DNA of 64,000 nt from Desulfobacterales bacterium (GTDB lineage: Bacteria > Desulfobacterota > Desulfobacteria > Desulfobacterales > UBA5852), in NCBI GenBank assembly GCA_963674755.2, contig CAXXVS010000001.1:1056001-1120000 (forward strand), given 5' to 3'. The notes beneath the pieces were generated by a model. That model was not told where the DNA came from and made no database searches. It was given only the letters and a program-made list of their open reading frames with translations. Position numbers and translations under genes: made by a program. Of the stretch, positions 12,065 to 53,133 are shown piece by piece. Every line of letters starts with the position of its first letter. The stretch's first letter is position 1.

Positions 12065-14586
12065 GGTTGGCGACCGCCGGGGCCCATGGAAAAATGGGGC
12101 GTGGCCGGCACCCGGCTCAGGAAATGGGCGCTGATTTGCTGGGCGAATTGGATCAAGTGGGCCGCCATGCGTTCCAGGAATTCCGCCAGATCGTCGTGCG
12201 GGTCCCGATTGCCCGGGCAGGCCACGTCGGTCAGATCCAGCAGGCGCACGGCGGTCAGCATTTCCAGGGCCAGGCGTTCTTCCGGTGCGGCAAAGCGGCG
12301 GCTGCCGCGACCGGGCAGATTTTCCACGTGGGACGCCAGCTGGCTGAGCTGGAAGGCCAGAGACTTGGGATTGGTTTCGTCCGCCAGCAGCAGGTCCAGC
12401 ACCGGGGCCAGTTGAAAGGCTGTCCGGTAGCGGCTGCGATAGGTCATGATGCTGTCGGAGACTTCCAACAGGGCTTCCAGGGCGCTGCGGGATGCCGTGC
12501 AAGCCCGGGGGAGGCCGATCCGGATCAGGCGGGTCTGGTTCATGGCCCTTTCAACACGTCGCCCCATGTCCATGAAGCGCCACCCCAACCCGCGGGTCAT
12601 GCTCTCCATGGCCAGTCCGCTGAAGGCGCTGAGGGTGAAGAGGGTGTCGTCCAGCAGCTCCAGCGGATCGTCGGCCTGGGCATCGGCGAAGCTCTCCAGC
12701 CGATTGATGACGCGCCAGGAATCCAGGGAAAGCCGGTCGCGTACATTCCGGGCCGCTTCGCGCACCCGTGCCAGAACCGCCACCACGCTTTCGGGACGAT
12801 CCTGGTTGTATAAGGCTTCTTGCAACTGGGCGCTGAGTTCCCGATAGCGGGGCAAGATCTCACCTTCCCGCAGTGTTCCCGGAAGGGCGCCTTCCGCCAC
12901 AAGCAGATTCAGCAGAAAGGGCAGTTCGGGGATATCGCTCGCCCGGGTTTCGCCGGAAAGCCGGCGGAAGACGGCGCGCAGACGCCGCACCCGCCCTTCG
13001 GAACGTTCCAGATAGCGCCCCAGCCAGAGCAGATGGTCCGCCACCCGACTGGGCAGATCGCTGCCCCGGCTGAACTCGGCCACCTCATGAAGTCCGCCCA
13101 TGAGGCTGAAGGGGACGACAGGCTGGTCGGAAAGGACCCAGACATCTTTGCTCTGCTGCTGTTCCGGCAGATCCCCCGTCAGGGTTCCCACGTCCGTCGC
13201 CGTGATGGCGAGCCCGCCGGGCATTACCGCAAAGCCTTCCGCGGTTGCGCAGACAAAGACCCGCATAAGGGTAAACCGCGCTTCGGCACGGTTGGGGCCC
13301 CAGGCCGGTGCCGTGGCCGGCCGGAGCGGTTCCCGGGCTAAAAAGGCATGTGGGTTCGCCTGGATGGCGGCCCTTAGATCGGTTTCACGATCCGGAGCTC
13401 CGGAGGGGTCCATGGCCGGTTCCACCGTCAGTTGACTTATATTGGACAGGGCGTGATCCAGACCGTCCGGCGTTCCGCACCACCAGGACGGGTGGTTTTC
13501 CAGGAGCAGGTCCTCCCCGGCGAGTTGCCGGTAAAGGGCCGGCAAAAAAACGGCCAGGGCCGGTGTGTCTGCAAAGCCGCTGCCGATGGGGTTGATGACA
13601 TCGACGGATTGCTCCCGGGAAGCCTGGATGAGGCCCGCCACGCCGGCCGTGGTGCCCCGGCGCAGGGCAAAGGGATCGCTGAAGGCATCTGCGGTGTGGC
13701 GGAAAATGGCCTCCACCGGTTCCAAGCCGGCCAGTTTTTTGAGGAAAACCTTACCGTTGCGTACGGTCAGATCCTGGCCTTCCACCAGCGGGTAGCCCAG
13801 GTAGCGGGAGAGCAGGGCATGTTCGAAGTAGATCCGGCTTTCCGGTCCGGGCGTCAGCAGGACGATTCCGGGTTCCTCCCGCGGCAGGGCGGCCCGCTGG
13901 AGCGTGGCCTGGTGAAACGTCTGGAAAAAAGGGGCCAGCCGCCGGATCTGGGCTTTGTGATAGAGCTCCGGGAAGACGCGTGAAATGGCGATCCGGTTTT
14001 CGAGGGCGTAGCCCAGGCCGCAGGGGTTGGCGCCGTAGTCCCGGAGCACCCGGAACCGCCCCCGGGCATCCCGATAGAGATCGGCGGCATAGAAGGTCAG
14101 AAAGCGTTTGCCGACCGGTTGAATGCCGTGGCAGGGGCGCAAAAAGCGGGGATTGGCGAACAGTAGGGCCGGGGGGAGGTGGCCTTCCCTCAGCAAGCGC
14201 TGGGGGCCGTAGACGTCCGCCAGAATCTTCTCCATTACCCGGGCCCGCTGGAGCAGGCCGGCTTCCAGGGCCGCCCACTCCGCCGCCGTGACGAGCAGCG
14301 GCATCACATCCAGAGCCCAGGGGGTGGCGCGTCCGGCGGGATCGTCGAAGAGGTTGAAGGTGGCCCCGTCCTCGTGGCGTCGGCGCCGGACACGGTCCTG
14401 ACGGTTGGCCAGCACCTGGGGACTCATGGCTTCCAGCGCCGCGATGAGAGGTTGCCAGTGGGGCCGCGGCGTACCGGGCGACGCAAACGCTTCGCAATAG
14501 CCTTCCGGGGGACAGGCCAGCACTTCAAACAGCGAAGACGAGGACGGTTGAGAGGATGCCGGCCCGGTCGGTTCGGGAGTGATCAT
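12061..14586 (-). CDS. circularly permuted type-2 ATP-grasp fused to an alpha-E domain
   Basis: GLGYALENR, LTPG..S..YFEH.LL.RYLG..LVEG.DL, MPGGL and SKDVWV motifs, then alpha-E PSRVA..L.WLGRYLER and GRRVERA. Confidence 0.9.
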   Translation of the reverse strand: MITPEPTGPASSQPSSSSLFEVLACPPEGYCEAFASPGTPRPHWQPLIAALEAMSPQVLANRQDRVRRRRHEDGATFNLFDDPAGRATPWALDVMPLLVTAAEWAALEAGLLQRARVMEKILADVYGPQRLLREGHLPPALLFANPRFLRPCHGIQPVGKRFLTFYAADLYRDARGRFRVLRDYGANPCGLGYALENRIAISRVFPELYHKAQIRRLAPFFQTFHQATLQRAALPREEPGIVLLTPGPESRIYFEHALLSRYLGYPLVEGQDLTVRNGKVFLKKLAGLEPVEAIFRHTADAFSDPFALRRGTTAGVAGLIQASREQSVDVINPIGSGFADTPALAVFLPALYRQLAGEDLLLENHPSWWCGTPDGLDHALSNISQLTVEPAMDPSGAPDRETDLRAAIQANPHAFLAREPLRPATAPAWGPNRAEARFTLMRVFVCATAEGFAVMPGGLAITATDVGTLTGDLPEQQQSKDVWVLSDQPVVPFSLMGGLHEVAEFSRGSDLPSRVADHLLWLGRYLERSEGRVRRLRAVFRRLSGETRASDIPELPFLLNLLVAEGALPGTLREGEILPRYRELSAQLQEALYNQDRPESVVAVLARVREAARNVRDRLSLDSWRVINRLESFADAQADDPLELLDDTLFTLSAFSGLAMESMTRGLGWRFMDMGRRVERAMNQTRLIRIGLPRACTASRSALEALLEVSDSIMTYRSRYRTAFQLAPVLDLLLADETNPKSLAFQLSQLASHVENLPGRGSRRFAAPEERLALEMLTAVRLLDLTDVACPGNRDPHDDLAEFLERMAAHLIQFAQQISAHFLSRVPATPHFSMGPGGRQP

Positions 14587-14716
14587 ACCTTGAATGCCTC
14601 AGTAATCAGCCCGGGGCGGACGAGGGTTCATTCCCTGCTGATAACGACGTTACCTTGCCCCAGCGGATACCCGGCTGCCGGACGGTGGGGCCGTTCATTC
14701 GGATACAGGCGCCGGT

Positions 14717-17700
14717 TTACTTGGTTTGCCGCCGCAAATCAAGCGTATAAGGAAAGTCGCGATTGATTTCCGGTGCCGGCGGAGCGAGACGCGCGTCGGG
14801 GGTGTGGCCGCCGGCGATGAAGCGGGCATGGCGCCGCCCCTCGGCTTCGTTGGCATTGACCGGGAATATGTCATAGTTGCGCCCGCCCGGGTGGCCGACA
14901 TGGTAGGTGCAGCCGCCCACCGCCCGTCCCGACCAGGTGTCGAACAGGTCGATCACCAGCGGCGTGTGCACGCCGATGGTGGGGTGCAGACAGGTCGGTG
15001 GTTGCCAAGCCCGGTAGCGGATGCCGGCCACGAAGACCCCCTCCACGGCGGTGGGTTGCAGGGGCACCCGCCGGCCGTTGCAGGTCACGATATAGCGTCC
15101 GCCGGTCATGCCGGAAACTTTCACCTGGAGACGTTCCACCGATGAGTCCACGAAGCGCACGGTGCTCCCGCCGCCGGGCTCCTCGCCCAACACATGCCAG
15201 GGTTCGAGAGCCTGGCGCAGTTCCATTTCCATGCCCTGAAAGGTGACTTGGCCGAAAATGGGAAAGCGGAACTCGAAATGGGGATGGAAAAACGCCATGG
15301 AGACCGGGTAGCCGGCCGCATGGAGGGTCGCCAGCACATCGTCAAAATCGTCTTGCACCGGCTGGGGCAGCATGAAGCGGTCGTGCAACCGGGTACCCCA
15401 ACGGATCAGGTCCTGTCGGTAAGGGGTGCGCCAGAACCAGGCCATGCAAATCCGCAGGAGCAGTTGCTGGGCCAGGCTCATGCGGGCGTGGGGGGGCATC
15501 TCAAAGGCCCGGAACTCCAGCAGGCCCAACCGGCCGGCGGCGCTGTCCGGCGAGTAGAGCTTGTCGATGCAAAACTCGGCCCGGTGGGTGTTGCCGGTGA
15601 CGTCCACCAGCAGGTTGCGGAAGAGCCGGTCCACCAGCCAGAGCGGGCAGGGCCGGTCCGGACCGGTTTGCCGCGCCATTTCGGCAAAGGCGATTTCCAG
15701 CTCGTAGAGGCTGTCATGCCGGGCTTCGTCGATGCGCGGTTGTTGGCTGGTAGGCCCGATGAAAAGCCCCGAGAACAGAAAGGAGAGAGACGGGTGGTTG
15801 TTCCAGAAAGTAACGATGCTGCGCAGGAGGTCCGGCCGGCGCAGAAAAGGGCTGTCGGCCGGTGTGGCCCCGCCTACCACGATATGGTTGCCGCCCCCCG
15901 TACCGGTGTGGCGGCCGTCGAGCATAAACTTTTCCGTTCCCAGGCGGGTCTGGCGGGCGGTTTCGTAAAGCGTGGTGGTGACGGCGACCATTTCCCGCCA
16001 GTTGTGCATGGGCTGGATGTTGACTTCGATCACACCGGGGTCGGGGGTGATTTTGAGGCTGTTCATTCGCGGGTCGTAGGGCGGCGTATAGCCTTCGATG
16101 ACCACGGGGCAGCCGGTCTGGCGGGCCGTGGCCTCGATGGCGGCCGTGAGTTCCAGATATCCTTCCAGGGTCGCCACCGGCGGCATGAAGACGTAAAGGC
16201 GCCCTTCCCGGGGCTGCACGCAAAGGGCGGTGCGGACCACCCAGGCGGCGGATTCGCCGGGCACCGGCTCCGGGGCCTCGTAGGGGCGGGGCTGGGTGCG
16301 AACGCCTTCCCCGGTTTCGGGGGACGGAGCGCCTGCCAGGGCGGTTTGCCCGGCGTGCAGGTCCGGCAGGGGACCTCGCTCGGCCATGGGGTCCAGGGGG
16401 TGATCGTAGGGGAAATCCTTTTTCGAGACCCAGGGCAGCGATTCCAGGGGCAGGCGCAGGCCTGCGGGGGAGTCGCCGGGCAGCAGGTACATGTGTTCCC
16501 CCCGGCAGGGCCAGGGGCCGCTCTTCCAGGAGCCGTGCTGCAGGGGCAGCACATAGCCGGTCACCGCCCCCAGGCCCTGCCGGAAGGTCTCGACCATGCG
16601 GGCCCGGGCCTCGGGGTCCGTCAGGCGCGGGTCGAGCGGATCCACATTCACCGGCAGGCGCTGCTCCTTGTGAAGGTAGTACAGGATGTCCTCGTAAGCC
16701 GGGCGGATGAAGTCCCGCCGCACCCCCAGGGTATCGGCCAGAGCCTCGATGAAGACCTTGGCTTCGGTGGCCCCGAAGCCATAGTCCCGGTCCACGTCGG
16801 CAATCCAGCGGTCGTCTTCCCACACCGGCTTACCGTCCTGGCGCCAGTAGCAGCCCAGGGCCCAGCGGGGCAGGGATTCGCCGGGATACCATTTACCCTG
16901 GCCGTAGTGGAGGAGGCCGCCGGGGGCCCATTGGGCGCGCAGTTGCTTGATCAGGTGTTCGGACAGCCGGCGTTTGTCCTCCCCCAGGGCGGCGGTGTTC
17001 CACTGGTCGCCGTCCATGTCGTCGATGGAGACGAAGGTGGGCTCGCCCCCCATGGTGAGACGCACGTCGGCCGCCGCCAGTTCCCGGTCCACCTGGTCCC
17101 CCAGGGAGACGATGGCGGACCACACGTCCTCCGGATAGGGCCGGGTGGCGCGGGGGGCTTCCCACAGGCGCTGCACCTCCATATGGTGGCTGAATTCCAC
17201 TTCGCATTCGTCCACCGCGCCGGAGACGGGGGCGGCGCTCTGGGGCTCCGGGGAGCAGGCCAGGGGAATGTGCCCCTCGCCGGCAAACAGGCCCGACGTG
17301 GGGTCCAGTCCCACCCAGCCGGCCCCGGGCAGATAGACTTCGGTCCAGGCATGCAAATCGGTGAAATCAGCCTCCGGCCCGGAAGGACCGTCCAGGGATT
17401 TCACGTCCGCCGCCAGTTGGATGAGGTAGCCGGAGGCAAAGCGGGCGGCCAGGCCCAGATGACGCAGGATGTTGACCAGCAGCCAGGCCGAGTCCCGGCA
17501 GGAGCCGCTTCCCAGGGTCAGGGTCTGCTCGCAGCTCTGCACGTTGGGCTCCATGCGGATCAGGTAGCGGATGTCGCTGGTCAGCTTCTGGTTCAGCTTC
17601 ACCAGAAAGTCGATGATCTGCTCGGGAGCGCGGTCGATTTCCGCCAGATAGGCCGCGAAAGCCTTGCCCGGCGCTTCAGCGGCCAGGTAAGGGGCCAGAT

Positions 17701-18037
17701 CCGATTTCAGCTTGGGGTCGTAGGTGAAGGGAAAGGTTTCCGTCTCCGGTTCCAGAAAGAAATCGAAGGGATTGATGACGATCATATCGGCCACCAGATC
17801 GATTTCCACACGGAATTCGCGTGTTTTTTCCGGGAACACCAGGCGGCCTAAATAGTTGCTGAAGGGATCCTGCTGCCAGTTGATGAAATGGTCCCGGGGG
17901 GTCACCGTCATGGAATAGCTCAGGATGGGGGTGCGGCAATGGGGTGCCGGCCGCAGGCGGACGATCTGCGGCGAGAGGGTTACACGCCGGTCGTAGCGGT
18001 AGCTGGTTTTGTGGTTCAGGGCAATATGGATTCCCAC
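14717..18037 (-). CDS. transglutaminase fused to DUF2126 (putative amidoligase)
   Basis: GSCRDSAW, DLHAW and GLDPTSG triad motifs; TMGGEPTF, VTPDPGVIEVN-like, TGGGNH and EFRAFEMPP motifs. Confidence 0.92.
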   Translation of the reverse strand: MGIHIALNHKTSYRYDRRVTLSPQIVRLRPAPHCRTPILSYSMTVTPRDHFINWQQDPFSNYLGRLVFPEKTREFRVEIDLVADMIVINPFDFFLEPETETFPFTYDPKLKSDLAPYLAAEAPGKAFAAYLAEIDRAPEQIIDFLVKLNQKLTSDIRYLIRMEPNVQSCEQTLTLGSGSCRDSAWLLVNILRHLGLAARFASGYLIQLAADVKSLDGPSGPEADFTDLHAWTEVYLPGAGWVGLDPTSGLFAGEGHIPLACSPEPQSAAPVSGAVDECEVEFSHHMEVQRLWEAPRATRPYPEDVWSAIVSLGDQVDRELAAADVRLTMGGEPTFVSIDDMDGDQWNTAALGEDKRRLSEHLIKQLRAQWAPGGLLHYGQGKWYPGESLPRWALGCYWRQDGKPVWEDDRWIADVDRDYGFGATEAKVFIEALADTLGVRRDFIRPAYEDILYYLHKEQRLPVNVDPLDPRLTDPEARARMVETFRQGLGAVTGYVLPLQHGSWKSGPWPCRGEHMYLLPGDSPAGLRLPLESLPWVSKKDFPYDHPLDPMAERGPLPDLHAGQTALAGAPSPETGEGVRTQPRPYEAPEPVPGESAAWVVRTALCVQPREGRLYVFMPPVATLEGYLELTAAIEATARQTGCPVVIEGYTPPYDPRMNSLKITPDPGVIEVNIQPMHNWREMVAVTTTLYETARQTRLGTEKFMLDGRHTGTGGGNHIVVGGATPADSPFLRRPDLLRSIVTFWNNHPSLSFLFSGLFIGPTSQQPRIDEARHDSLYELEIAFAEMARQTGPDRPCPLWLVDRLFRNLLVDVTGNTHRAEFCIDKLYSPDSAAGRLGLLEFRAFEMPPHARMSLAQQLLLRICMAWFWRTPYRQDLIRWGTRLHDRFMLPQPVQDDFDDVLATLHAAGYPVSMAFFHPHFEFRFPIFGQVTFQGMEMELRQALEPWHVLGEEPGGGSTVRFVDSSVERLQVKVSGMTGGRYIVTCNGRRVPLQPTAVEGVFVAGIRYRAWQPPTCLHPTIGVHTPLVIDLFDTWSGRAVGGCTYHVGHPGGRNYDIFPVNANEAEGRRHARFIAGGHTPDARLAPPAPEINRDFPYTLDLRRQTK

Positions 18038-18076
18038 AGGCGGTCCTTTCTGAAAGCGGCAGCCGGCACCGTTCGG

Positions 18077-19051
18077 CTATTGTTCCTGCGTGGCGGCCTC
18101 GATCAGCGTTTGGAGGTTGAAAAAGGTGGTGCCGATGGCTTCGTCCACCTCGTTGAGACGGCTTTGCAACCCGTCCATATATTCGTGCATGCCGTGGGCG
18201 ACCACTTCATCGACATCCGTATAGGCCAGATCCGAAGCGAGCCGGCCCAGGCGTTTCTCGGCCGCGTTTTGGGCCGACCCGGGCGGTGAGCCGCTAATCC
18301 GGTGCAGGCAAATTTGCGCCTTGGCGACGCAATGGCGGATGGAGCGCGGGAACTGGCTGTCGAAAATGAGAAAATCCGCCACATTGCGGGGGGTGATGCG
18401 ATGATGGGTCTTGCGGAACATCTCAAAGGCACTGGCGGATTTCAACACGGCCATCCACTGGATATTGTCCACCGGGGTATTCACCAGATCCGCCTGGGGG
18501 AGCAGCATGAAGTACTTCACGTCCAGAATGCGGGAAGTTTTGTCCGCCCGCTCCATCATCATGCCGATGCGGGCGAAGTTCCAGGCCTCGCCATGGCTCA
18601 TGGTGGAGTCCAGTAGGCCGGTGAACAAGTGGCTGCGCATCTGGATGATTTTGAAAAAGCGGTGGGGCTCCTCCAGGGCCAGGGTAACGCTCCGGTTATC
18701 GGCCAGCTCGAGGTAGAAATTGTTCAGGTGCTCCCACATCTCCGAGGAGATGATCTCCCGGATCGAGCGGCCGTTCTCGCGGGCGGCGGCCAGGCAGGCC
18801 AGGATCGAGTTGGCGTAGGCTTTGTCGAAAGTCAGGAAGCGGATCACGGCTTCCTGGTCGTAGTCGGGATAATGCGCCTCGAACAACGCCTGGTCGCCGG
18901 TGGTCATCACCACCGGCTCCCAGTGCTTGCCCTTTTCCGAGGGCATGTCCAGCAGCAGGTTGAGGTTGACGCTGATGAAGCGGGCTACGTTTTCCGCCCG
19001 TTCGATATAGCGGCACATCCAGTAGATCGAGTTGGCCACACGGCTGAGCAT
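18077..19051 (-). CDS. alpha-E domain protein
   Basis: MLSRVA..IYWM.RYIERAEN.AR, ARENGRSIRE, ERADKTSRILDVKY and FPRS motifs. Confidence 0.92.
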   Translation of the reverse strand: MLSRVANSIYWMCRYIERAENVARFISVNLNLLLDMPSEKGKHWEPVVMTTGDQALFEAHYPDYDQEAVIRFLTFDKAYANSILACLAAARENGRSIREIISSEMWEHLNNFYLELADNRSVTLALEEPHRFFKIIQMRSHLFTGLLDSTMSHGEAWNFARIGMMMERADKTSRILDVKYFMLLPQADLVNTPVDNIQWMAVLKSASAFEMFRKTHHRITPRNVADFLIFDSQFPRSIRHCVAKAQICLHRISGSPPGSAQNAAEKRLGRLASDLAYTDVDEVVAHGMHEYMDGLQSRLNEVDEAIGTTFFNLQTLIEAATQEQ

Positions 19052-19067
19052 TTGGGTCCCTCCTTAT

Positions 19068-19214
19068 TTGACCTTTCAGAAACGGCATCTTTTGGCCCAT
19101 GCCTGCGTTCTCCCGATATTGAAATCCTCGACGTAGCCCTGCTACGCCTCCGGCTTCAATATCGCTGCGGCCTTGGCCTGAACCAAAATCTATCATTTCT
19201 GCCTGGTCAACACT
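19068..19214. repeat. intergenic palindromic (MITE/REP-like) element, family A copy 1
   Basis: GGCATCTTTTGGCCC...GCGTTCTC...CCTCGACGTAGCCCTGCTACGCC...GCGGCCTTGGCC...CCAAAATCTA, shared with copies at 36593, 45654, 48574, 51667 and 59449. Confidence 0.85.
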
Positions 19215-19373
19215 TACAGTGATATGCCTACCAAGTCTGTTTGAAAATGTTTCACTTCGGTCAAGATCACGGCGATGGATCATTCCAACCGCAGGCATAC
19301 ATTTCGTAAGTCGAGGGTTGAAATGTGAGCTCAACGCTGAAATGGGTCGAAATGGGATGTTTTGCAATTGACT

Positions 19374-20807
19374 TTAAAGCACCCAGGTGTCCTTGCTGCC
19401 GCCCCCCTGGGAAGAGTTTACCACCAGGGATCCTTTGGTGAGGGCCACCCGGGTCAGGCCGCCGGGCTGGACGTAAATGTCCTCTCCGAAAATCACATAG
19501 GGCCGCAGGTCTACGTGGCGTCCCTCGATGCGGTCGCCCACGATGGTGGGCACCCGGGAGAGGGAAATGGTCGGTTGGGCCATGTAGTTGCGGGGTTCGG
19601 CCGCGATCTTGGCGGCGAAGGCCGCCCGCTCCGCTTCGGTGGCATGGGGACCCACCAGCATGCCGTAGCCGCCGGATTCGTTGGCCGCCTTGACCACCAA
19701 CTGGTCGAGATGCGCCAGCACATAGGCCCGGTCCTCATCGTTGCGGCAGATATAGGTGGGCACGTTGGGCAGAATGGCGTCTTCGCCGGTATAGTAGCGG
19801 ATGATCTTGGGCACGTAGGCGTAAATCACCTTGTCGTCGGCGATGCCGGTGCCCGGTGCGTTGGCCATGGCCAGGCGGCCGGTCTTGTAGACCCCGATGA
19901 GGCCCTTGACCCCCAAAAGGGAATCGGGGCGGAAGACTTCCGGATCGATGAAGTCGTCGTCGATGCGCCGGTAGAGGACATCCACCCGCTGAAGCCCCTT
20001 GGTGGTGAGCATGTGGACATAGCCGTCGGCGACCACCAGATCCTGGCCCTCCACCAGTTCCACCCCCATTTGCTGGGAAAGAAAGGAGTGTTCGAAATAG
20101 GCGCTGTTGTAAATGCCGGGGGTCAGGACCCCTATGGTGGGGGATTGGATCTGCTCCGGGGCCAGGTAGGCCAGCATTTCCAGCAGTTTGGCGGGGTAGT
20201 CGTCCACCGGTCGAACCTGGGAGGCCTGGAAGACCTGGGGGAAAGTGCGTTTGAGCACCTGACGGTTCTCCAGCACATAGGAAACGCCCGAGGGGCAGCG
20301 CAAGTTGTCCTCCAGCACATAGAAGCGCCCGTCCTGATCCCGCACCAGGTCGGTGCCGGTGACATGGCACCAGATGCCCCGCGGCGGGGTGAACCCCTCA
20401 CATTCCGGGCGGTAGGTGCGGCTGGTAAGGACCAGTTCCTCGGGGACCACCTTGTCTTTGAGGATTTTTTTGTCGTTGTAGACGTCCTGGAGGAATTCGT
20501 TGAGCGCGAAAATCCGCTGTTTCAGCCCGTTTTCGATCTGCTGCCAGTCGTTGCCGGAAACGATGCGGGGAATGATGTCGAAGGGAAAGATCTTCTCGGT
20601 GCCCTCGTCGCGTCCGTACACATTAAACGTAATGCCCATCTTGAGAAGCAGGGCTTCGGCCGCCTTCTGGCGCATGGCCAGGCCGCCGGCCGGCAGGGAT
20701 TCGATTTTGTCCACCAGCAGCCGGGCGCCGGGCCGGGGGGTGCCGTCGGCCTCGATTAGCTCGTCGTAGTAGTCCCCTGGTTCATAACTTCCAAATGTTG
20801 CCGTCAT
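19374..20807 (-). CDS. circularly permuted type-2 ATP-grasp protein
   Basis: PFDIIPR, EDNLRCPSGVSY, NSAYFEH, YRRIDDDFIDP, GIADDK and VVNSSQGGGSKDTWV motifs. Start set to the ATG at 20807. Confidence 0.93.
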   Translation of the reverse strand: MTATFGSYEPGDYYDELIEADGTPRPGARLLVDKIESLPAGGLAMRQKAAEALLLKMGITFNVYGRDEGTEKIFPFDIIPRIVSGNDWQQIENGLKQRIFALNEFLQDVYNDKKILKDKVVPEELVLTSRTYRPECEGFTPPRGIWCHVTGTDLVRDQDGRFYVLEDNLRCPSGVSYVLENRQVLKRTFPQVFQASQVRPVDDYPAKLLEMLAYLAPEQIQSPTIGVLTPGIYNSAYFEHSFLSQQMGVELVEGQDLVVADGYVHMLTTKGLQRVDVLYRRIDDDFIDPEVFRPDSLLGVKGLIGVYKTGRLAMANAPGTGIADDKVIYAYVPKIIRYYTGEDAILPNVPTYICRNDEDRAYVLAHLDQLVVKAANESGGYGMLVGPHATEAERAAFAAKIAAEPRNYMAQPTISLSRVPTIVGDRIEGRHVDLRPYVIFGEDIYVQPGGLTRVALTKGSLVVNSSQGGGSKDTWVL

Positions 20808-21168
20808 GCCGTTTGCTCCGATTTTTTGATGGAAAAGACCCCTATCGTTTCTTCTGGGCTTCATTTAGAACACTCCCACGCGCCGGGCACGTCGGCACGG
20901 CGGGTCGAGATCAGTGATGGGGAGTGCTGCCGTTTTCTTAAGGATGAAGCGGGGTGTGTTTCGTGCTGATCAACTATTTCAGGAAGGTGCCGGCGTGTCA
21001 ACTGATCCACCGTGGGAATTGGCTGGCACCGGAGGGGCATCCTGGTCTATCGGATCGACAGCGAAACCGGATCCAGGCATTGTCGGCAGGCATCGTGTTG
21101 CAAGGGGGGGAGCGGCCCCCGTCAAAACTAGCGAGGGCCGCGGTTCAATCGGGGATCACCGGGAGGCA

Positions 21169-23739: not shown

Positions 23740-23775
23740 TTGACTTTATTAGGGTAACGGTGTTACGCTAATAAA
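23740..23775 (+). promoter_or_regulatory. sigma70-type promoter overlapped by a 31-bp palindromic TetR operator
   Basis: TTGACT at 23740-45 and TGnTACGCT at 23761-69; palindrome TTTATTAG-G-GTAAC-GGT-GTTAC-G-CTAATAAA at 23745-23775. Confidence 0.75.
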
Positions 23776-23802
23776 ATTAAATGCTCAGGGAGAGGACCGG
23801 CC

Positions 23803-24468
23803 GTGCCCAAACCCCAACGCAGCCTTCAAGAAATCGAAGCCGTCCGGGAAGATATTCTCCACCATGCCCTGGAACTGATCGTGCAGGACGGATTCCAGGG
23901 TTTCAGTATGCGCAAACTGGCAGTCCGCCTGGGCATTGCCGCCAAAACCATCTACAATTACTACCGCAACCAGGACGAGCTCTACCTCTGCATTCTGATC
24001 AAGGGGTTCGAACAGCTCCACGCCGCTTCCGAAGCGGCGGTCCGCGCGGCCGGGCAGCCCCAGGAACAATTGGAAGCCGCCATCCGGGCTTACGTGGATT
24101 TCGGTCTGGCCAATCCCCACCTCTACAACCTGATGTTCACCTGGCATGTGCCCAAATACAACGACTATGTGGGCACACCCATGGAAAAAGCGGCCTATCG
24201 CGAACTGACGGCGGCGTTGAAGTGTGCGGATCTTTTCCTGGCCATCATGGCGGCCTGCCGGGCGGAGGCGGCACCCATGAGCGAAGACGATTTGCGCTTC
24301 GAGATGATTCAGATCTGGTCCCAGATGCACGGCTATGTGGCCGGCATCAACAATTCGCTGCTGGACTACATGCACGCAAGCCCGCGTGCGCTCCAGCCGC
24401 GCATCATCGATCGTCTGATCCGCAATACCCGGCAGGCACTCCAAACCATGGACGAAAAGCGGAATTGA
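23803..24468 (+). CDS. TetR/AcrR-family regulator
   Basis: GF..FSMRKLA..LG....TIYNYY.N.DEL HTH; WHG-like C-terminal motif WSQMHG. Confidence 0.92.
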   Translation: MPKPQRSLQEIEAVREDILHHALELIVQDGFQGFSMRKLAVRLGIAAKTIYNYYRNQDELYLCILIKGFEQLHAASEAAVRAAGQPQEQLEAAIRAYVDFGLANPHLYNLMFTWHVPKYNDYVGTPMEKAAYRELTAALKCADLFLAIMAACRAEAAPMSEDDLRFEMIQIWSQMHGYVAGINNSLLDYMHASPRALQPRIIDRLIRNTRQALQTMDEKRN

Positions 24469-24511
24469 GAATATGAAAACACAGTTATCTACCCGGTAAA
24501 GACGATTGCCC

Positions 24512-25471
24512 ATGACCGCATCCCATACGCCCGATGAGATCCCCCCATCCGCCGAAGCGGCCCCTCTGATTCTGGACGTCAAAGGCAATGCCCTCGATGA
24601 CGGGCCGGGCATCCGATCGGTGGTCTTTTTCAAAGGATGCCCGTTGGCCTGCGTCTGGTGCCACAACCCCGAGAGCAAAAAGGCACTCCCGGAACTGGCC
24701 TTCGATGCCAAGGCCTGCACCGGTTGCGAGGCCTGCCTGGCGGTCTGCGACGCCGACGCCCTGGCACGGGGGAATCCCGGCTATGTCGACCGGCAGGTTT
24801 GCCGGCAATGCTTTGCCTGTGCGGCGGTCTGTCCCTCGGGCGCGCTGGCGCAGGTGGGGCAGGTGATGCCCGTTGAAGGGCTGGTCGAGAAACTTCTCAG
24901 GGACAAGCCGTTCTATGACACGTCCGGCGGCGGGGTCACCTTCTCAGGGGGCGAACCCACCCTGTTCATGCCCTACCTGTCGTCCCTGGCCGCTGCCCTG
25001 CAGGCTGCGGGGGTTTCGACCCTGCTCGAAACCTGCGGGCATTTCGATGCGGATCGGTTTGAGACGCGGGTGCTGCCCCACCTGGATGCCATCTACTTCG
25101 ATCTGAAACTCTTCGATGGGGAGCGGCACCGGCGTTACTGCGGCCTGCCCAACGACATCATCCTGACCAATTTTATCCGTTTATGGGCGCTTTCCCGCGG
25201 GAGCCACTTCTCCTTGTTGCCCCGGATTCCACTGGTTCCCGGCCTAACGGCCACCCAGGCCAACATTCGCGCCTGGGTGTCCTTTCTGAAAACCCACCGA
25301 GTCGGCCGGGTTAAACTGCTGGCCTATAACCCCTTGTGGCCGGCCAAGGCCGCCCGCATTGGAGAAGACAACCCCCATGCAGCCGCGGCAGCGCTGCAGG
25401 ACTGGATGCCGCCGGCCGATGTGGCCCGCCTGGAAGGCCTGTTCCATGAGGCCGGTATCGAAACGCTTTAA
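24512..25471 (+). CDS. glycyl-radical enzyme activating protein (radical SAM with ferredoxin-like insert)
   Basis: DGPGIR..VFFKGCPLACVWCHNPES; two CxxCxxCxxxC motifs; SGGGVTFSGGEP. Confidence 0.95.
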   Translation: MTASHTPDEIPPSAEAAPLILDVKGNALDDGPGIRSVVFFKGCPLACVWCHNPESKKALPELAFDAKACTGCEACLAVCDADALARGNPGYVDRQVCRQCFACAAVCPSGALAQVGQVMPVEGLVEKLLRDKPFYDTSGGGVTFSGGEPTLFMPYLSSLAAALQAAGVSTLLETCGHFDADRFETRVLPHLDAIYFDLKLFDGERHRRYCGLPNDIILTNFIRLWALSRGSHFSLLPRIPLVPGLTATQANIRAWVSFLKTHRVGRVKLLAYNPLWPAKAARIGEDNPHAAAAALQDWMPPADVARLEGLFHEAGIETL

Positions 25472-25491
25472 GAATTCGGGGAGACATCACC

Positions 25492-26268
25492 ATGACATAC
25501 GACCTTAACGGAAAAGCCGTGGTTCTGACCGGGGGCAGCCGCGGCATCGGGCGATGCGTCGCCGTGCAGTTGGCCGGGGCCGGTGCCCGGCTGGTTGTGC
25601 TGGCCCGGGATGTGGCCGCCTTGCAGGACACCGTGGGCCAGGTGGCTGCCGCCGGGGGGCAGGCTGTTGCGATCCCCTGCGACGTGACCGACGAGGCCTC
25701 TGTCCGCAGCGCGGTCGAACAGGCCGCCCGGGCCCTGGACGGGATCGATGTCTTCATGAACATTGCCGGCGTCACGCTGCAGAAACCCCTGCTGGAGGCC
25801 ACGGATGACGACGTACGCCGCGTCATGGAGACCAACCTGCTGGGGGTGCTGCGCTGCTGCCGCCATGCCGTGCCTTTTCTGAAAGCGCGCCGCGGGGTGC
25901 TGGTCAATGTGGCCAGCATCATCGTCAGCAACCCCTTCCCCCATATGGGGGTTTACGCCTGCTCCAAGTGGGCCCTGGCCGCCCTCAGCCACACCCTGCG
26001 GCAGGAGCTCCACGGCGGCGGCGTACGGGTGCTCACCGTCTATCCCGCCGTGGTGCGCACCGGCATGCTGGCCCAGGAGCCGGTCCTGGCCCTCACCCCG
26101 ACCCAATCACCGGAGGTCTGCGCCCGGGCCATCGTCAGGGCCCTCCAAAAAGGCCGTCAAGAGGCCAGCACGGCTTGGCTGCCCAAGATCAGCGGGGCCC
26201 TGTTCAAGCTGCATGCGCCCTGGTGTGACCGCATCAATCGCCTCTTTTTACCCCGGGCCTTCAAATGA
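25492..26268 (+). CDS. classical SDR oxidoreductase
   Basis: TGGSRGIG, CDV, NIAG and catalytic YACSK. Confidence 0.93.
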   Translation: MTYDLNGKAVVLTGGSRGIGRCVAVQLAGAGARLVVLARDVAALQDTVGQVAAAGGQAVAIPCDVTDEASVRSAVEQAARALDGIDVFMNIAGVTLQKPLLEATDDDVRRVMETNLLGVLRCCRHAVPFLKARRGVLVNVASIIVSNPFPHMGVYACSKWALAALSHTLRQELHGGGVRVLTVYPAVVRTGMLAQEPVLALTPTQSPEVCARAIVRALQKGRQEASTAWLPKISGALFKLHAPWCDRINRLFLPRAFK

Positions 26269-26305
26269 TCCTATGGGGACCTTTTTAAATGAAGGAGGTG
26301 TCGTC

Positions 26306-29300
26306 ATGGTCCTGTTGCAACCCGCAGCGTCGAACGATTTTTCCCCGCCGCACACCGGCCGGTCCGCCATGCACTGGGTAGTCAAATTGCTCCTGGGGCT
26401 CATGGCGGCCAGCTTTCGCTATCGCCCCGCCCTGCGGCGCTGTCTGCGAAGCGATCAGGGCTGGATCAATTTTACGGCCGGCATCCGGACGCGTTCCGGA
26501 TCGATCCAGGCGGCCATCCGCTTCAAGGACGGACGGGTGTCCGTGCGGAGCGGCCTGCCCGAGGACACGGATATTGCCCTGGTGTTCCGGTCGGATGCCG
26601 CCGTGCGCCGATTCCTTACGGCCACGCCCACCGAGCAGGTCACCATGATCCTCCAAAACGATTTCTACACGCTGGGCAACGTTTCCTACCTGAACCTCTT
26701 CGTCTATTGTCTCTCCCTGCTGCTCAGCAAGCAACAGATCCGGCAGATGGAAAAAGAGCGGCGGAAGGCCCGCCAAGACCTGCTCGAAACATCCCCCAGC
26801 GCCCAACCCCAACTGGTCGATGAATTCACGGCGCGACGGGCCAATCCCTTGAAGGGAACCCGGGTCGACCCCGGCGTCCGCTATCTCGAAGACCCTTACC
26901 TGGGCGCTTATCGCCTGGAGGATTTCCCCCGGGTGGCGGCCTTTCTGGACGCCCATTTCGAGACCCGGGCCGAGGTTTGCCCCGAACTGCCGAAGCTGGT
27001 GACCGACTGGCACAAGGCCAACGGCTATGAGACCGACATGGCGGGGCGCCCCTGGAATCCGATTTTGCGCAAGGCCCTCTGCTACAAGCACACCATGGCC
27101 AAGCGGCGTCCCATCATTCGGGAAAACGATCTGATTGCCGGGACCACTACCACCAAGGCGATCGGCGTGGTGGTCTACCCGGAGGGCCACGGCACCATGA
27201 TCTGGGGGGAGCTGCTGACCGTACCCCACCGGTCGCTCAATCCTTACGACGTGGCCCCGGAGACCCGGCGCCTGCTGCACCACGAGGTGTTTCCCTATTG
27301 GATCCAGCGCAACTTCAAGGAATGGGTGCGGCAAAAGTACGACCAGCCCCTCTGCCAGCAGATCGACGAGCGCTGGGCCGTGTATTTCAACTGGAAGTCA
27401 GTGACCATTTCCCACACCATCCCGGATTTTCCCAAGATCCTGCGGCTGGGGGCCCGGGGCATCATCGCGGAAATCGAGGCCGAACGGGCCGCCGAGCCCG
27501 ACGATCCCGGGAAGACCGCCACCCGGCAGGCCATGATCCTGTGCCTGGAGGGTCTCATGACCTATGCCGCCAACCTCTCCCGCCAGGCGGCGATCGAGGC
27601 CCGCCAAGCCGATGACCCCGCGCGTCGGGCTGAACTTGAAAACCTGGCCCGCATCTGCAGGCAGGTGGTGGCCCATCCGGCCCGCACCCTGGATGAAGCG
27701 GTCAACGCCGTCTGGATCACTTGGGTCGGCCTCCATATGGAGAGCACCAACGCGGGGCTGTCCCTGGGACGGCTCGACCAGTGGCTGCAGCCCTATTTCG
27801 AGGCGGACATGGTCCTGCGGGACCGGCCGGAGGATCGGGAGGCCTATCTGCGCTACGCCATCGAGCTGATCAGCTGTTTCATGTTGCGCTGCACAGACCA
27901 TCTTCCCCTGACGCCGGATTTCGCCAACTACTACTTTGGCGGCAGTTCCTCAGACCAGGCCATCACCCTGGGCGGGGTCACGCCGGAAGGCGAGGATGCC
28001 GTCAACGACATGACCTACATCTTCCTCAAGGTCACCGAAATGCTCAGCCTGCGGGACCCCAACGTCAATGCCCGCTACAATGGGGCGCAGAACAGCGACG
28101 TCTATCTCAAGCGTCTCTGCGACGTCAACCTGACCACCGCGGCGACCCCTTCCCTGCACAACGACGAGGCCATCTGGCAATCCCTGGCGGAGTTCGACTA
28201 CGCTCCGGAAGACTTGCGCAACTGGTCGGCCACGGGCTGTGTCGAGCCCACCCTTTCGGGCCGGCACATGGGCCATACCAATTTCCAGATGATCAGCCTG
28301 GTGGCAGCCCTGGAGATGGCCTTGAACAACGGGCGCCACCCCCTCATGGACTGGAAGCTCGGACCGGACACGGGGGAGGTGGAGGACGGGGACTTTGCCA
28401 CTTTCGACCAGTTTTTCGAGGCCTTCACCCGGCAGATGGGCTTTCTCGTCGCGCAATCCATCCAGTACAATGAAATGCTGGCCCGGGCCCACCAGGTGAT
28501 CCGCCCCACCCCGCTGCTCTCCACCCTGATCGAGGACTGCATTCGCACCGGCCGGGACGCTACCCGGGGCGGCGCCCGCTACAACAGCTCGGGGGCGGCC
28601 TGTATCGGCCTGGCCGACGTCACGGATTCCCTGCTGGTGATCAAACAACTGGTCTTCGACGAGGGGCGGGTATCCTTCGCGGACCTGAAGCGGGCCATCG
28701 ACACCAATTTCGAAGACGATCCGGCCCTGCATGCCCTGGTGACCCGCAAAGTACCCCTGTTCGGGTCGGGCAGCGCAGCCGCGGTGGCCATGGCCAACCG
28801 CGTTACCCGCTTCGTCCACGATACCTATGGAAGCTACCCCCACTACCGGGGCGGGCGCTACACGGCCGGCTTCTGGTCCATGTCCAACCACGTGGCCTAC
28901 GGCACCCTGGCCGGCGCCCTGCCTTCCGGGCGCCTGGCGGGCAAACCCTTCACCCCCGGGCTGACCCCCCAGCCGGCGGCCTCCACCAATCTGCTGGACA
29001 ACCTGCGGGACGTGGCCGCCTTGGAGCCGCGTAACATGAACAACAACATCGCCTTCAACGTGAAGGTGGTGCCCGGCGCCGGGGAGCCCCGCACCCGGAC
29101 CGTGGACACCATGTTCGCCTACGTGAAAACCTATTTTCAGCTCGGCGGCATGCAGATGCAGATGAACGTGGTCACCTCCGCGATGCTGCGCGACGCCATG
29201 GCCCACCCGGAAAACTACCGCAACCTGCTGGTGCGCATTTCCGGCTACAACGCCTATTTCGTGACCCTCAACCGGAACATGCAGCAGGAGCTGATCGAGC

Positions 29301-29320
29301 GGGCGGAATACGGATTATGA
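26306..29320 (+). CDS. glycyl radical enzyme (non-PFL, eliminase-like) with N-terminal SCP2-like extension
   Basis: Start after an AAGGAGGT RBS (alternative ATG at 26369); SLGRLDQ, ITLGG, Cys loop GCVEP and Gly loop LVRISGY; about 1004 aa. Confidence 0.9.
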   Translation: MVLLQPAASNDFSPPHTGRSAMHWVVKLLLGLMAASFRYRPALRRCLRSDQGWINFTAGIRTRSGSIQAAIRFKDGRVSVRSGLPEDTDIALVFRSDAAVRRFLTATPTEQVTMILQNDFYTLGNVSYLNLFVYCLSLLLSKQQIRQMEKERRKARQDLLETSPSAQPQLVDEFTARRANPLKGTRVDPGVRYLEDPYLGAYRLEDFPRVAAFLDAHFETRAEVCPELPKLVTDWHKANGYETDMAGRPWNPILRKALCYKHTMAKRRPIIRENDLIAGTTTTKAIGVVVYPEGHGTMIWGELLTVPHRSLNPYDVAPETRRLLHHEVFPYWIQRNFKEWVRQKYDQPLCQQIDERWAVYFNWKSVTISHTIPDFPKILRLGARGIIAEIEAERAAEPDDPGKTATRQAMILCLEGLMTYAANLSRQAAIEARQADDPARRAELENLARICRQVVAHPARTLDEAVNAVWITWVGLHMESTNAGLSLGRLDQWLQPYFEADMVLRDRPEDREAYLRYAIELISCFMLRCTDHLPLTPDFANYYFGGSSSDQAITLGGVTPEGEDAVNDMTYIFLKVTEMLSLRDPNVNARYNGAQNSDVYLKRLCDVNLTTAATPSLHNDEAIWQSLAEFDYAPEDLRNWSATGCVEPTLSGRHMGHTNFQMISLVAALEMALNNGRHPLMDWKLGPDTGEVEDGDFATFDQFFEAFTRQMGFLVAQSIQYNEMLARAHQVIRPTPLLSTLIEDCIRTGRDATRGGARYNSSGAACIGLADVTDSLLVIKQLVFDEGRVSFADLKRAIDTNFEDDPALHALVTRKVPLFGSGSAAAVAMANRVTRFVHDTYGSYPHYRGGRYTAGFWSMSNHVAYGTLAGALPSGRLAGKPFTPGLTPQPAASTNLLDNLRDVAALEPRNMNNNIAFNVKVVPGAGEPRTRTVDTMFAYVKTYFQLGGMQMQMNVVTSAMLRDAMAHPENYRNLLVRISGYNAYFVTLNRNMQQELIERAEYGL

Positions 29321-29324
29321 AAGG

Positions 29325-30851
29325 ATGAAGACACATATGATGACGCGGCGCAGTTATCAAAACGGCAGGCGACTCGTGCTTTGGCGCGCATGGGCGCGGG
29401 GGATGTTGGGCCTCTTCTGGATCGGGTCGATGGTGCTTCTTGGGGGGCATACGGCTGCCGCGGCGACCGGCAATACTGAACCGGCGCCGCGGCCCAACGT
29501 CATCATCGTTTACTGCGACGACTTGGGCTATGGCGATCTGGGGTGCTACGGCAGCCGGGCCATCGCCACACCCCACGTGGACCGGCTGGCCCGGGAAGGG
29601 GTGCGCATGACCGACTACTACGCCTGCAATGCCATCTGCGCCCCCTCCCGGGCCGGACTGCTGACAGGCCGCTACCCCTTCCGATCAGGGGTCATCGGCA
29701 ACATCTACCCCAAGGACGAACCCTTTACCCGCCGGGCTGCCCGGGAGTACGTGGGGGGATCCTTGCGGGGACTGGGGGTTCTCGATTTGCGGGAAGGGGA
29801 GGTGGTTTCCGGCATTCCATCCAAGGAGCTGCTCCTCGGCGAAGCCCTGCAGACCGCAGGCTACCACACCGCCATGGTGGGCAAGTGGCACCTGGGGGAC
29901 TACAGCATCGACCCGGCTTACAACCCCCGGCGCAACGGGTTCGATTTCTACCTCGGGCTGCCCCACAGCAACGATATGCGGCCCTGCCCCCTGTACCATA
30001 ACGAGGAGATGCTGCAAGCGGATATCGGCACCGACCAGGCCAAGTTGACCGGCCTTTATACCCGGGAAGCCGTACGGTTCATCAAAGAGGCCGGCCGGGA
30101 GCCCTTTTTTCTTTACGTGGCCCACACCTTTCCCCATCAGCCCCTGTACGCTTCGGCGCAATTTGAGGGTCAATCCAAGGCCAGCAAATTCGGGGATGCG
30201 GTGGAGGAAATCGACTGGAGTGTGGGCCAAATCATGACGACGCTGCAGGAGGCGGGGGTTGCGGATAATACCCTTGTTTTTTTCACCAGCGACAACGGCC
30301 CCTGGTTCGAGGGCAGCCCCGGCCCTTTCCGGGGGCGCAAGGGGCAAAGCTACGAGGGCGGTTTCCACGTGCCCATGATCGCCCACTGGCCCGCCGGGCT
30401 GCCGGCCGGACGGGTATGCCGGGTACCCTGGATGAATATCGATCTCTATCCCACCATCCTGGCCCTGGCCGGGGTGCCCCTGCCCGACGACCGCGTGATC
30501 GACGGACGGGACATCCTGGGGCTGCTCGCCGGCCGGGAGATCCGGGCCCCCCACGAAGCGCTCTTCTTCTACCACTACGATCAACTGGAAGGCCTCCGCT
30601 CCGGCCAATGGAAGTATTTCCGTCGGATCAACCGGTATGTATGGCCCATCCCCCTCGATGCGACTCCACTAGTGAACAAGTTGGGCGGCAGCCAATTGGG
30701 CAACCGCTGGCCGTTACTCTACAATCTCGACTTGGATCCGGGCGAAAGCTACAATGTCATCGCCACCCATCCGGAGGTGGCCGAGCGGCTGGCCACCCTG
30801 TTGGAGCGCTGGGAAGCGGACAACGCACAGAATCCGGGGGGCTGGCGGTAG
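29325..30851 (+). CDS. exported Cys-type formylglycine-dependent sulfatase (arylsulfatase A-like)
   Basis: PNVI....DDLGYGD, CAPSR..LLTGR, GKWHLG and FTSDNG motifs; hydrophobic signal ending in AAAA. Confidence 0.93.
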   Translation: MKTHMMTRRSYQNGRRLVLWRAWARGMLGLFWIGSMVLLGGHTAAAATGNTEPAPRPNVIIVYCDDLGYGDLGCYGSRAIATPHVDRLAREGVRMTDYYACNAICAPSRAGLLTGRYPFRSGVIGNIYPKDEPFTRRAAREYVGGSLRGLGVLDLREGEVVSGIPSKELLLGEALQTAGYHTAMVGKWHLGDYSIDPAYNPRRNGFDFYLGLPHSNDMRPCPLYHNEEMLQADIGTDQAKLTGLYTREAVRFIKEAGREPFFLYVAHTFPHQPLYASAQFEGQSKASKFGDAVEEIDWSVGQIMTTLQEAGVADNTLVFFTSDNGPWFEGSPGPFRGRKGQSYEGGFHVPMIAHWPAGLPAGRVCRVPWMNIDLYPTILALAGVPLPDDRVIDGRDILGLLAGREIRAPHEALFFYHYDQLEGLRSGQWKYFRRINRYVWPIPLDATPLVNKLGGSQLGNRWPLLYNLDLDPGESYNVIATHPEVAERLATLLERWEADNAQNPGGWR

Positions 30852-52479: not shown

Positions 52480-53133
52480 ATGCTTCTTTCGGCGATTTTT
52501 TTGCTTGCACCGGTATTACTGGCCATACTGTTGATTTTCGAGCGTCAGGAGCGTCTGGGAGGCAAGCTGCTGGTCAAACCGCTGCTCTCCGGCCTATTCG
52601 TCCTGACGGCCCTGGTGGCGGCGCCCCGCTTTTCGTCTTATACTGTTATTGTGGTCAGCGGCCTGGTGCTGTGTCTGGCGGGCGACGTCTGCCTGGCGTT
52701 GCCCCAGCCAACCGGCTTCCGTGTCGGTCTGGTGGCGTTTCTGCTGGGCCATGTGGCCTATATCGCCGCCTTCGCTTCGACGGCCTCTCCCAACTGGGGA
52801 TTGTGGATCGCCGCCGTGGCGGCCCTGCCGGTCAGCAGCCTGGTCTACCACCGCTTGCAGCCGTTTCTGGGGCCCATGCGAACGGCGGTCATGGCCTATA
52901 TCGTGGTGATCACGGTCATGCTGATTGCCGCCGGCGGTTTGTTCGGCGATTTGCGTTTACCCGTGACGGGGCGCTTTCTGGTATTGAACGGGGCTTTCAG
53001 TTTTTACCTTTCCGATATTTTTGTAGCGCGGCAGCGCTTTGTCCAGCCGTCCTTCTGGAATCGCCTGATCGGCCTGCCGCTCTACTACCTGGGGCAGTTC
53101 CAGATTGCCTACACCACCGGATTGATCGGTTGA
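52480..53133 (+). CDS. YhhN/TMEM86 family lysoplasmalogenase-like membrane protein
   Basis: KP, GD..L, F..GL..FL.GH..Y, F..SD and YY.GQ motifs. Confidence 0.85.
   Translation: MLLSAIFLLAPVLLAILLIFERQERLGGKLLVKPLLSGLFVLTALVAAPRFSSYTVIVVSGLVLCLAGDVCLALPQPTGFRVGLVAFLLGHVAYIAAFASTASPNWGLWIAAVAALPVSSLVYHRLQPFLGPMRTAVMAYIVVITVMLIAAGGLFGDLRLPVTGRFLVLNGAFSFYLSDIFVARQRFVQPSFWNRLIGLPLYYLGQFQIAYTTGLIG

Follow-up and report, generated by a model that had tools for sequence, protein, structure and literature searches.

A stretch of 64,000 nucleotides from a Desulfobacterales genome (contig CAXXVS010000001.1, positions 1,056,001 to 1,120,000; hereafter the window) carries an operon built around a glycyl radical enzyme (GRE) whose N-terminus has the fold of an SCP2 lipid-carrier domain. 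The family of SCP2-fused GREs is genuine and broadly distributed, and its substrate class lends itself to testing. Judged by its motifs, the enzyme appears to work like an eliminase but to belong to no characterised family, and it very probably acts on the head group of some long-chain lipid. There is close to an even chance that this lipid derives from a sphingolipid. The specific reaction that we put forward is a tentative proposal: a sphingoid base would undergo radical 1,2-elimination to a long-chain 3-hydroxy-aldehyde.

The SCP2-like N-terminal domain

The initial annotation had read the N-terminal extension of the GRE as SCP2-like, and structural comparison bears this out. When a model of the N-terminal domain (predicted local distance difference test, pLDDT, 84.7) was aligned to 48,161 solved chains, the ten best matches were all SCP2 domains (Z 11.1–8.0, root-mean-square deviation (rmsd) 2.6–3.9 Å, 100–118 residues), followed at rank 11 by a match of Z 6.5. 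Residues ~19–142 of the modelled protein have the SCP2 fold, and a long helix (residues 126–162) connects this domain to the barrel. Of 60 homologous N-termini, 23 matched the Pfam SCP2 family PF02036 at E ≤ 1, the best of them at E 6.9e-5; no other Pfam family matched more than three of the 60. The window’s own N-terminal domain had no Pfam SCP2 match and the N-terminal alignment profile had no significant match in the PDB; the fold search alone settled its identity. In the modelled enzyme the domain probably binds lipid, and the hydrophobic substrate proposed at the outset is a reasonable expectation.

A search with residues 20–230, restricted to proteins of 552–1757 aa, returned 50 proteins, all 50 of which carry a PFL-like domain. 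Pairing of SCP2 and GRE also exists in split form, as a small SCP2-domain gene adjoins an 815–832-aa GRE at three loci (L124, L125 and L173). Elsewhere in the host genome (G000:C3:1115483–1118821), a 118-aa SCP2-like protein with a weak match to the GRE N-terminal profile is encoded in an operon with a 2-hydroxyacyl-CoA-lyase-like enzyme. This operon is conserved in L013, L054, L160, L161, L163 and L166, often with a Zn alcohol dehydrogenase.

Catalytic core and family membership

The full GRE model (pLDDT 86.9, predicted template modelling score 0.90) has a barrel like that of pyruvate formate-lyase (PFL), and together with the C-terminal glycyl motif, the Cys loop and the adjacent activase gene this identifies a PFL-like GRE. 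Its closest folds are propanediol and glycerol dehydratase (27–29% identity) and its closest sequence match is Archaeoglobus fulgidus PFL2 (E 2e-112). Among 103 aligned homologues, Cys645, Glu647, Gly980, Lys364, His532, Asp538, Trp857, Met859 and His862 are invariant, and His370 (101), Asn659 (98), Ala483 (96) and Asp550 (88) nearly so. Gly980 is the predicted glycyl radical site. The single-Cys, eliminase-type loop noticed initially (residues 644–647) is present in all 103 and contains, as C645-V-E647, the CxE motif whose definition and role in GRE 1,2-eliminases and isomerases are given in section 5.6 of a 2026 review (PMC13450708). Residue equivalences given here rest on sequence alignment, not on model geometry.

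Against full-length GRE models the protein scores 116–485 bits, where cut-offs are 678–1150. It has a single Cys and no Cys–Cys pair of the PFL kind (TIGR01255, 116 vs 994 bits). For CutC the score is 379.9 vs 1050 bits (TIGR04394), and His370 and Asp550 replace the CutC Asp and Phe. For HypD it is 373 vs 1100 bits (NF043068), and by motif offsets from the relevant passages of PMC7077986 the HypD residues Asp278, Ser334, Asp339, Phe340 and Thr645 read Ala483, Phe544, Ser549, Asp550 and Met859. The C–S lyases (IslA/IseG/HpsG) fare no better, with 344 vs 1000 bits for the HpsG model and Val366 and His370 at the first Arg and the Gln of the Arg-Gln-Arg sulfonate clamp (alignment offsets). Glycerol and propanediol dehydratases share the CxE motif and the catalytic His, His370 corresponding to His166 of 5i2a (alignment) and His164 of 1r8w (offset). 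Their substrate pocket, which we take to consist of His281/Ser282, Tyr339 or Phe344, Asp447 and Tyr640, reads Ala483/Gly484, Asp550, Asn659 and Trp857; the roles of pocket residues in these dehydratases and in CutC are likewise assumed. Fumarate-adding enzymes such as BssA and MasD lack a Glu two residues after the Cys and have small accessory subunits; here Glu647 is invariant, and BssA/MasD-type folds rank lowest among GREs. Because the motifs are of eliminase type while every curated cut-off and the pocket residues are missed, the enzyme appears eliminase-like without a characterised family. On both points the initial interpretation is supported.

Position 550 is of particular interest. Its equivalent in HypD by offset from the GG that follows, Phe340, faces the substrate nitrogen according to PMC7077986, and an ammonium or hydroxyl group would be well matched by an Asp in this place. 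Positions 370, 550 and 659 vary between paralogue clades. Diverged SCP2-GRE copies occur in tandem in L004 (3908–9899) and L092 (6357–13224), and GRE genes in L049, L053, L065, L071, L073, L091 and L117 have frame breaks (sequencing error or decay).

Distribution and conserved operon

The genome scan kept 74 loci (from the best 80 of 148 confirmed stretches), and the full locus set comprised 120 after removal of six duplicates, 73 of them with at least 3 kb on either side. SCP2-GRE loci came from Desulfobacterales, Smithellaceae, Leptospirales, other Spirochaetota, Actinomycetota, Chloroflexota and others. In the host’s order 33 of 221 genomes carry the SCP2-GRE domain, with one to four matches each, as do 7 of 75 genomes of a second order. 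A profile search of 1.84 billion representatives gave 313 matches (118 at E ≤ 1e-10), mostly short unnamed proteins.

Neighbours were counted on the same strand within 3 kb, with the 73 fully flanked loci in brackets; only open reading frames (ORFs) near the core, picked by a crude longest-ORF rule, were sent to Pfam. An activase lies near the GRE in 78/120 loci (54/73) and a TetR homologue in 57/120 (46/73). TetR, the operator TAAC-N3-GTTA, activase and GRE form the conserved unit. The tight, co-oriented run of five genes described initially was recovered in full on the + strand, including the operator and the 4 bp between GRE stop and sulfatase ATG (Table 1), but its proposed reading as one pathway is not supported for two members. 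The sulfatase recurs in 3/120 loci (1/73) and the window’s type of short-chain dehydrogenase/reductase (SDR) in 1/120 (1/73), and both were rejected as core parts on account of this rarity, an outcome named at the outset as one that would count against the initial interpretation. The window’s SDR is 71% identical to that of L001 and ≤34% to others, and scores 125 bits on the profile of the conserved classical type, whose members score 330–460. The window operon is a local variant that also occurs in L001, where an SDR of the extended type is present as well.

Table 1 Features of the SCP2-GRE operon in the window
Feature	Position	Strand	Evidence or remark
Predicted TetR site and promoter: TTGACT -35-like hexamer (23740–23745), palindrome GTAAC-GGT-GTTAC (23754–23766)	23740–23780	+	
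TetR-family regulator, subfamily tied to SCP2-GRE	23803–24468	+	PF00440 and PF13305
Radical S-adenosylmethionine GRE-activating enzyme with ferredoxin insert	24512–25471	+	TIGR02494 above cut-off
Classical SDR, lineage-specific type, not ketosphinganine-reductase-like type	25492–26268	+	PF00106
SCP2-fused GRE, 1004 aa	26306–29320	+	PF02901 and PF01228
SCP2-fold domain, ~residues 19–142 of the GRE	26360–26731	+	Pfam on homologues and fold search
Cys loop Gly644-Cys645-Val646-Glu647 (GCVE)	28235–28246	+	Invariant in 103/103 aligned homologues
Glycyl loop RISGY (977–981), Gly980	29234–29248	+	Gly980 in 103/103 homologues
S1-family Cys-type sulfatase (CAPSR), signal-like N-terminus	29325–30851	+	PF00884; accessory, not conserved

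The operator expected ahead of the operon is visible as an inverted repeat with 19-nt arms (84%). Of 58 start regions of homologous tetR genes, 39 contain its core TAAC-N3-GTTA (expected ~0.014 per region), in many cases as a tandem pair spaced by 14 bp, and mostly directly after a TTGAC-like hexamer. This recurrence marks a conserved site, most simply the predicted operator of TetR. A sigma-70 scan made no call for the operon promoter, its promoter and terminator counts being at chance level. On a hidden Markov model of the TetR subfamily, whose members score 219–313 bits, the window’s TetR scores 298 and other TetRs of the host genome ≤83. A wider regulon was sought with a weight matrix over the host genome and rejected, as no convincing further target emerged. 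Twelve exact operator sites lie outside tetR regions, and only one locus (L033 = L080) has the look of a tandem operator there; downstream of this second operator come a DJ-1-family gene and an aldehyde:ferredoxin oxidoreductase. In L166 (5268–5954), a TetR of the GRE subfamily runs into an apparent extended-SDR fragment adjoining the 2-hydroxyacyl-CoA-lyase-like operon; this may be what is left of a GRE operon that was lost.

Partner genes and genome co-occurrence

Two other SDRs recur beside the GRE. A ketosphinganine-reductase-like classical SDR (hereafter the partner SDR) is found in 19/120 loci (16/73) and an extended SDR in 14/120 (11/73); L013, L015, L102, L105, L107 and L109 carry the two as a single fused gene. 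The partner SDR was named ‘3-dehydrosphinganine reductase family protein’ automatically in 2 of the 10 Atlas matches listed, and carries a CPPExxTP motif that we take to be KDSR-like, as in 3-ketosphinganine reductases. The extended SDR obtained no placement in the Atlas, and its best NCBIfam match, HpnA, was far below the cut-off.

Genes of sphingolipid type accompany the GRE, or a TetR of its subfamily, at individual loci. In L040, which falls in a five-member clade with the query GRE (support 0.974), the order is sphingosine-1-phosphate (S1P) lyase, FGGY kinase, operator, TetR, activase, GRE; the lyase homologue (E 1e-169) overlaps the kinase, which ends just upstream of the operator and tetR. 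L172 (1252–8977; G240:C8) holds, in one orientation, a ceramidase, a TetR (238 bits on the GRE-TetR subfamily profile), an FGGY kinase, a glutamate-semialdehyde-aminomutase-like class III aminotransferase and a RuBisCO-like protein; together they may offer sphingoid bases a third route, one that needs no lyase. A 2-hydroxyacyl-CoA-lyase-like enzyme lies near the GRE in L013 and L054; in four Leptospirales loci the thiamine-pyrophosphate enzymes of the same cluster were not distinguished from acetolactate synthase. Aldehyde:ferredoxin oxidoreductases follow the second operator in L033, lie upstream in L049/L061 and adjoin copies of the partner SDR in L130, L142 and L143. A class III aminotransferase occurs with DUF6206 near the GRE in five loci and without it in L054.

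The DUF6206/aminotransferase pair is present at G000:C2:2594123–2596387 and in L004, L015, L016, L020, L032, L157 and L165. DUF6206 looks kinase-like by eye (IDGQISNW, YFDT), and the two may possibly act as an amino-alcohol kinase and phospho-lyase. By hand count, DUF6206 is accompanied by an S1P lyase or an SCP2-GRE in 37 of its 39 genomes.

Co-occurrence was compared across the same 221 genomes of the host’s order, which are incomplete, 33 with and 188 without the GRE. The partner SDR was present in 23/33 vs 11/188, with only 11 candidates scored per genome; neutral ceramidase in 14/33 vs 4/188; the 2-hydroxyacyl-CoA-lyase-like enzyme in 17/33 vs 10/188; and DUF6206 in 13/33 vs 26/188. WS/DGAT, the control for a lipid lifestyle, was found in 9/33 vs 24/188, and as the single control it leaves a general lipid-scavenging lifestyle possible. 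Counted by hand over 78 families, the figures are 7/15 vs 3/63 for ceramidase, 9/15 vs 7/63 for the partner SDR and 6/15 vs 18/63 for WS/DGAT. In the second order, ceramidase is present in 2/7 vs 0/68 and the partner SDR in 3/7 vs 6/68. S1P lyase as an obligatory partner was rejected, at 12/33 vs 49/188. The partner SDR occurs in 11 genomes that lack the GRE; S1P lyase is present in 10 of these, and in the remaining one the activase lies with both SDRs at the end of a contig (L137).

Proposed reaction and alternative substrates

The conserved SDR partners and the genome co-occurrence point to sphingoid bases, which were absent from the list of substrates drawn up initially; the ether lipids on that list remain a live rival. 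In the sequence of events that we propose, ceramidases and related hydrolases would release the sphingoid base, and the SCP2 domain would bind and deliver its alkyl tail. The activase would generate the Gly980 radical, Cys645 would take the hydrogen from C1 and Glu647 would deprotonate the C1 hydroxyl. The group at C2, held by Asp550 and His370, would then leave, most likely as ammonia, or as water if the amine had been exchanged for a hydroxyl beforehand, while Ala483/Gly484, Trp857 and Met859 would make room for the tail. Either the extended SDR or an aldehyde:ferredoxin oxidoreductase could oxidise the aldehyde. Working in reverse, the ketosphinganine-reductase-like SDR could oxidise the (3R)-hydroxyl so that the chain enters beta-oxidation. 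A pathway lipid would release TetR, and in the host genome another SDR and the sulfatase would have been added locally. Abstraction from C1 with loss at C2 is favoured because it would keep the geometry of glycerol dehydratase, give Asp550 a partner and need no lyase, and because it would fit the aldehyde oxidoreductases and explain a reductase specific for the (3R)-hydroxyl. The GRE-bearing families f19 and f59 have no S1P lyase match.

Several observations weigh against a sphingoid base. S1P lyase is not enriched in GRE genomes, the ceramidase match is absent from 19 of the 33, and most ceramidase or lyase loci gave no operator match. Neither conserved SDR lies within 3 kb at 95 of 120 loci. 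The provisional name given to the partner SDR draws on automatic labels and on the motif taken to be KDSR-like, and a PDB comparison gave generic SDRs with no ketosphinganine reductase among the best 60 matches. The enrichment of this SDR is partly circular, since its profile was built from GRE-adjacent genes, and Fisher values are overstated as the genomes are kin and not independent. At the active site, His at position 370 is typical of water-eliminating GREs, where CutC has Asp, and several paralogue clades have another residue in place of Asp550, which may mean that substrates vary among the paralogues. In the host genome itself, neither a PF04734 ceramidase nor a ketosphinganine-reductase-like SDR passed the cut-offs applied.

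Ether-lipid genes near the GRE at some loci and a co-occurrence more complete than that of ceramidase bring in the main rival, to which we give a rather low probability: an enzyme that would convert 1-O-alkylglycerol to 3-alkoxypropanal, or cleave the ether to fatty alcohol and hydroxyacetone. The head pocket would be glycerol-dehydratase-like with space beyond C3, and an alkyl-dihydroxyacetone-phosphate-synthase-like gene occurs in 31/33 GRE-positive vs 63/188 GRE-negative genomes, but with 94 of the 221 genomes of the order carrying it, its presence says little. In L068 an FGGY kinase and glycerol-3-phosphate dehydrogenase directly follow GRE and activase, in L175 synthase-like and FGGY genes lie ~3.7 kb upstream, in L052 a YhhN gene adjoins the operon, and Zn-dependent alcohol dehydrogenases are nearby in L013, L054, L055, L071, L085 and L175. 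This reading leaves the ketosphinganine-reductase-like partner, the ceramidase enrichment and the L040 and L172 clusters unexplained, and an ether oxygen would probably be a poorer fit for Asp550 than an amine or a hydroxyl. A dehydratase acting on some other greasy vicinal diol (a long-chain 1,2-alkanediol, maybe from a sulfate ester as first suggested, a dihydroxy fatty acid, a hopanoid polyol or a steroid diol) is about as unlikely. The top fold matches are diol dehydratases, sulfatases occur in the window, L001, L035 and L076 and an alkyl-sulfatase gene near the operon in L033, and the extended SDR has its faint resemblance to HpnA; against this stand the scarcity of sulfatases, the absence of any repeated steroid or hopanoid gene from the neighbouring ORFs submitted to Pfam, and the sphingolipid links, for which it does not account.

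Loss of water from the C3/C4 diol of phytosphingosine or phytoceramide, giving 3-ketosphinganine that the partner SDR would reduce to sphinganine for cleavage by kinase and lyase, would let that SDR use its textbook substrate and would agree with His370, with the lyase and kinase upstream in L040, with the FGGY–lyase pair of the host and with the near-universal company of lyase or GRE in DUF6206 genomes. We consider it less probable still: sphinganine would be a dead end in f19 and f59, where the queries used found no lyase match (f19 also has no DUF6206), the alkyl chain would presumably face Asp550 in a dehydratase geometry, and the links to aldehyde oxidoreductases favour an aldehyde product. 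Least credible is an enzyme that is no lipid eliminase, whether adding hydrocarbons to fumarate or acting on a small, soluble compound while SCP2 tethers it to the membrane. The best sequence match would favour it, as A. fulgidus PFL2, whose role is debated, has been proposed as an alkylsuccinate synthase (section 7 of PMC13450708). The CxE motif is invariant, benzyl- and alkylsuccinate synthases come last in the fold search and low by sequence, and no recurring small-subunit cluster was seen among ORFs of at least 80 aa, a search that subunits <80 aa would fall outside.

Host genome and surroundings of the operon

The host genome has an FGGY–S1P-lyase pair (C3:2547663–2544616) along with the aminotransferase–DUF6206 pair and the alcohol dehydrogenase–small SCP2-like–lyase operon mentioned above. 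It also contains a GlpD–alkyl-dihydroxyacetone-phosphate-synthase-like–FGGY operon (G000:C3:2013815–2019328) and four further GREs of 788–838 aa, 28–33% identical (G000 C1:338476–340842, C3:205124–207556, C3:856393–858909 and C2:266687–269143).

Within the operon, residues 1–17 of the GRE are of low confidence and an alternative start is possible at Met22 (26369). The activase scores 249.9 bits on TIGR02494 (GRE-activase cut-off 174.35). The nearest solved structures to the sulfatase are steryl-sulfatase, GALNS and arylsulfatase A (E 3e-78 to 4e-68); it may act on a sulfated lipid, and its hydrophobic N-terminal stretch suggests export. Upstream lie groES/groEL on the opposite strand and downstream a convergent 2-hydroxyacid dehydrogenase. 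The window also holds a YhhN-family (lysoplasmalogenase-like) gene (52480–53133, +) and, at 12061–20864 (-), a cluster that we presume to resemble circularly permuted ATP-grasp, alpha-E and transglutaminase-like genes.

Significance and comparison with known systems

With a lipid carrier built in, a GRE would bring eliminase chemistry to membrane lipids. Should the substrate be a sphingoid base, sphingolipids of plants, algae and fungi could be turned over by this route without oxygen in sediments and digesters, which would also bear on their use as biomarkers. We hold it only a little short of an even prospect that this family is the first GRE acting on membrane lipids and gives sulfate reducers, syntrophs and other sediment anaerobes a first step into sphingoid-base breakdown that needs no oxygen, as an alternative to kinase and S1P lyase, with paralogues (up to four per genome) covering several head groups under one TetR subfamily. 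In any case, the greasy substrate is narrowed to a short, assayable list, and the conserved operator allows a cheap ligand screen.

The GRE eliminases treated in section 5.6 of PMC13450708 all use small soluble molecules; an SCP2-fused or lipid-acting eliminase is not described in its sections 5.6 and 7 or in selected other passages, and the word ‘sterol’ is absent from the review. Among the papers listed in the literature searched, none dealt with an SCP2-fused GRE or a link between GREs and sphingolipids, and subscription papers and supplements (GRE similarity networks) may hold the clade.

Glycerol dehydratase (1r8w) and propanediol dehydratase (5i2g, 9rco) have the same barrel (rmsd 2.1–2.3 Å, ~810 columns), and these B12-independent enzymes likewise have the CxE loop, His164/166 (= His370) and a cognate activase. 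The window GRE differs from them by its 27–29% identity, its extra SCP2 domain and its pocket, in which His283/Ser284 of 5i2a become Ala483/Gly484, Phe344 becomes Asp550, Asp452 becomes Asn659, Tyr694 becomes Trp857 and Val696 becomes Met859. CutC, the choline trimethylamine-lyase, has the CxE loop in common and would work similarly if the leaving group were nitrogen, but its Asp and Phe align with His370 and Asp550. A. fulgidus PFL2 (2f3o), the function of which is unsettled, shares the Ser-His at 369–370 and a similar 545–552 loop, but has 776 aa, no SCP2 domain and 29% identity in the structural alignment. Lastly, the N-terminal domain resembles the sterol-carrier domains of 3bn8, human 8af2, the alkyl-sulfatase C-terminus 4pdx and UbiJ 6h6n (Z 11.1–8.3, rmsd 2.6–3.8 Å over 100–116 residues), from which it differs by its 12–15% identity and by its fusion, here, to a radical enzyme.

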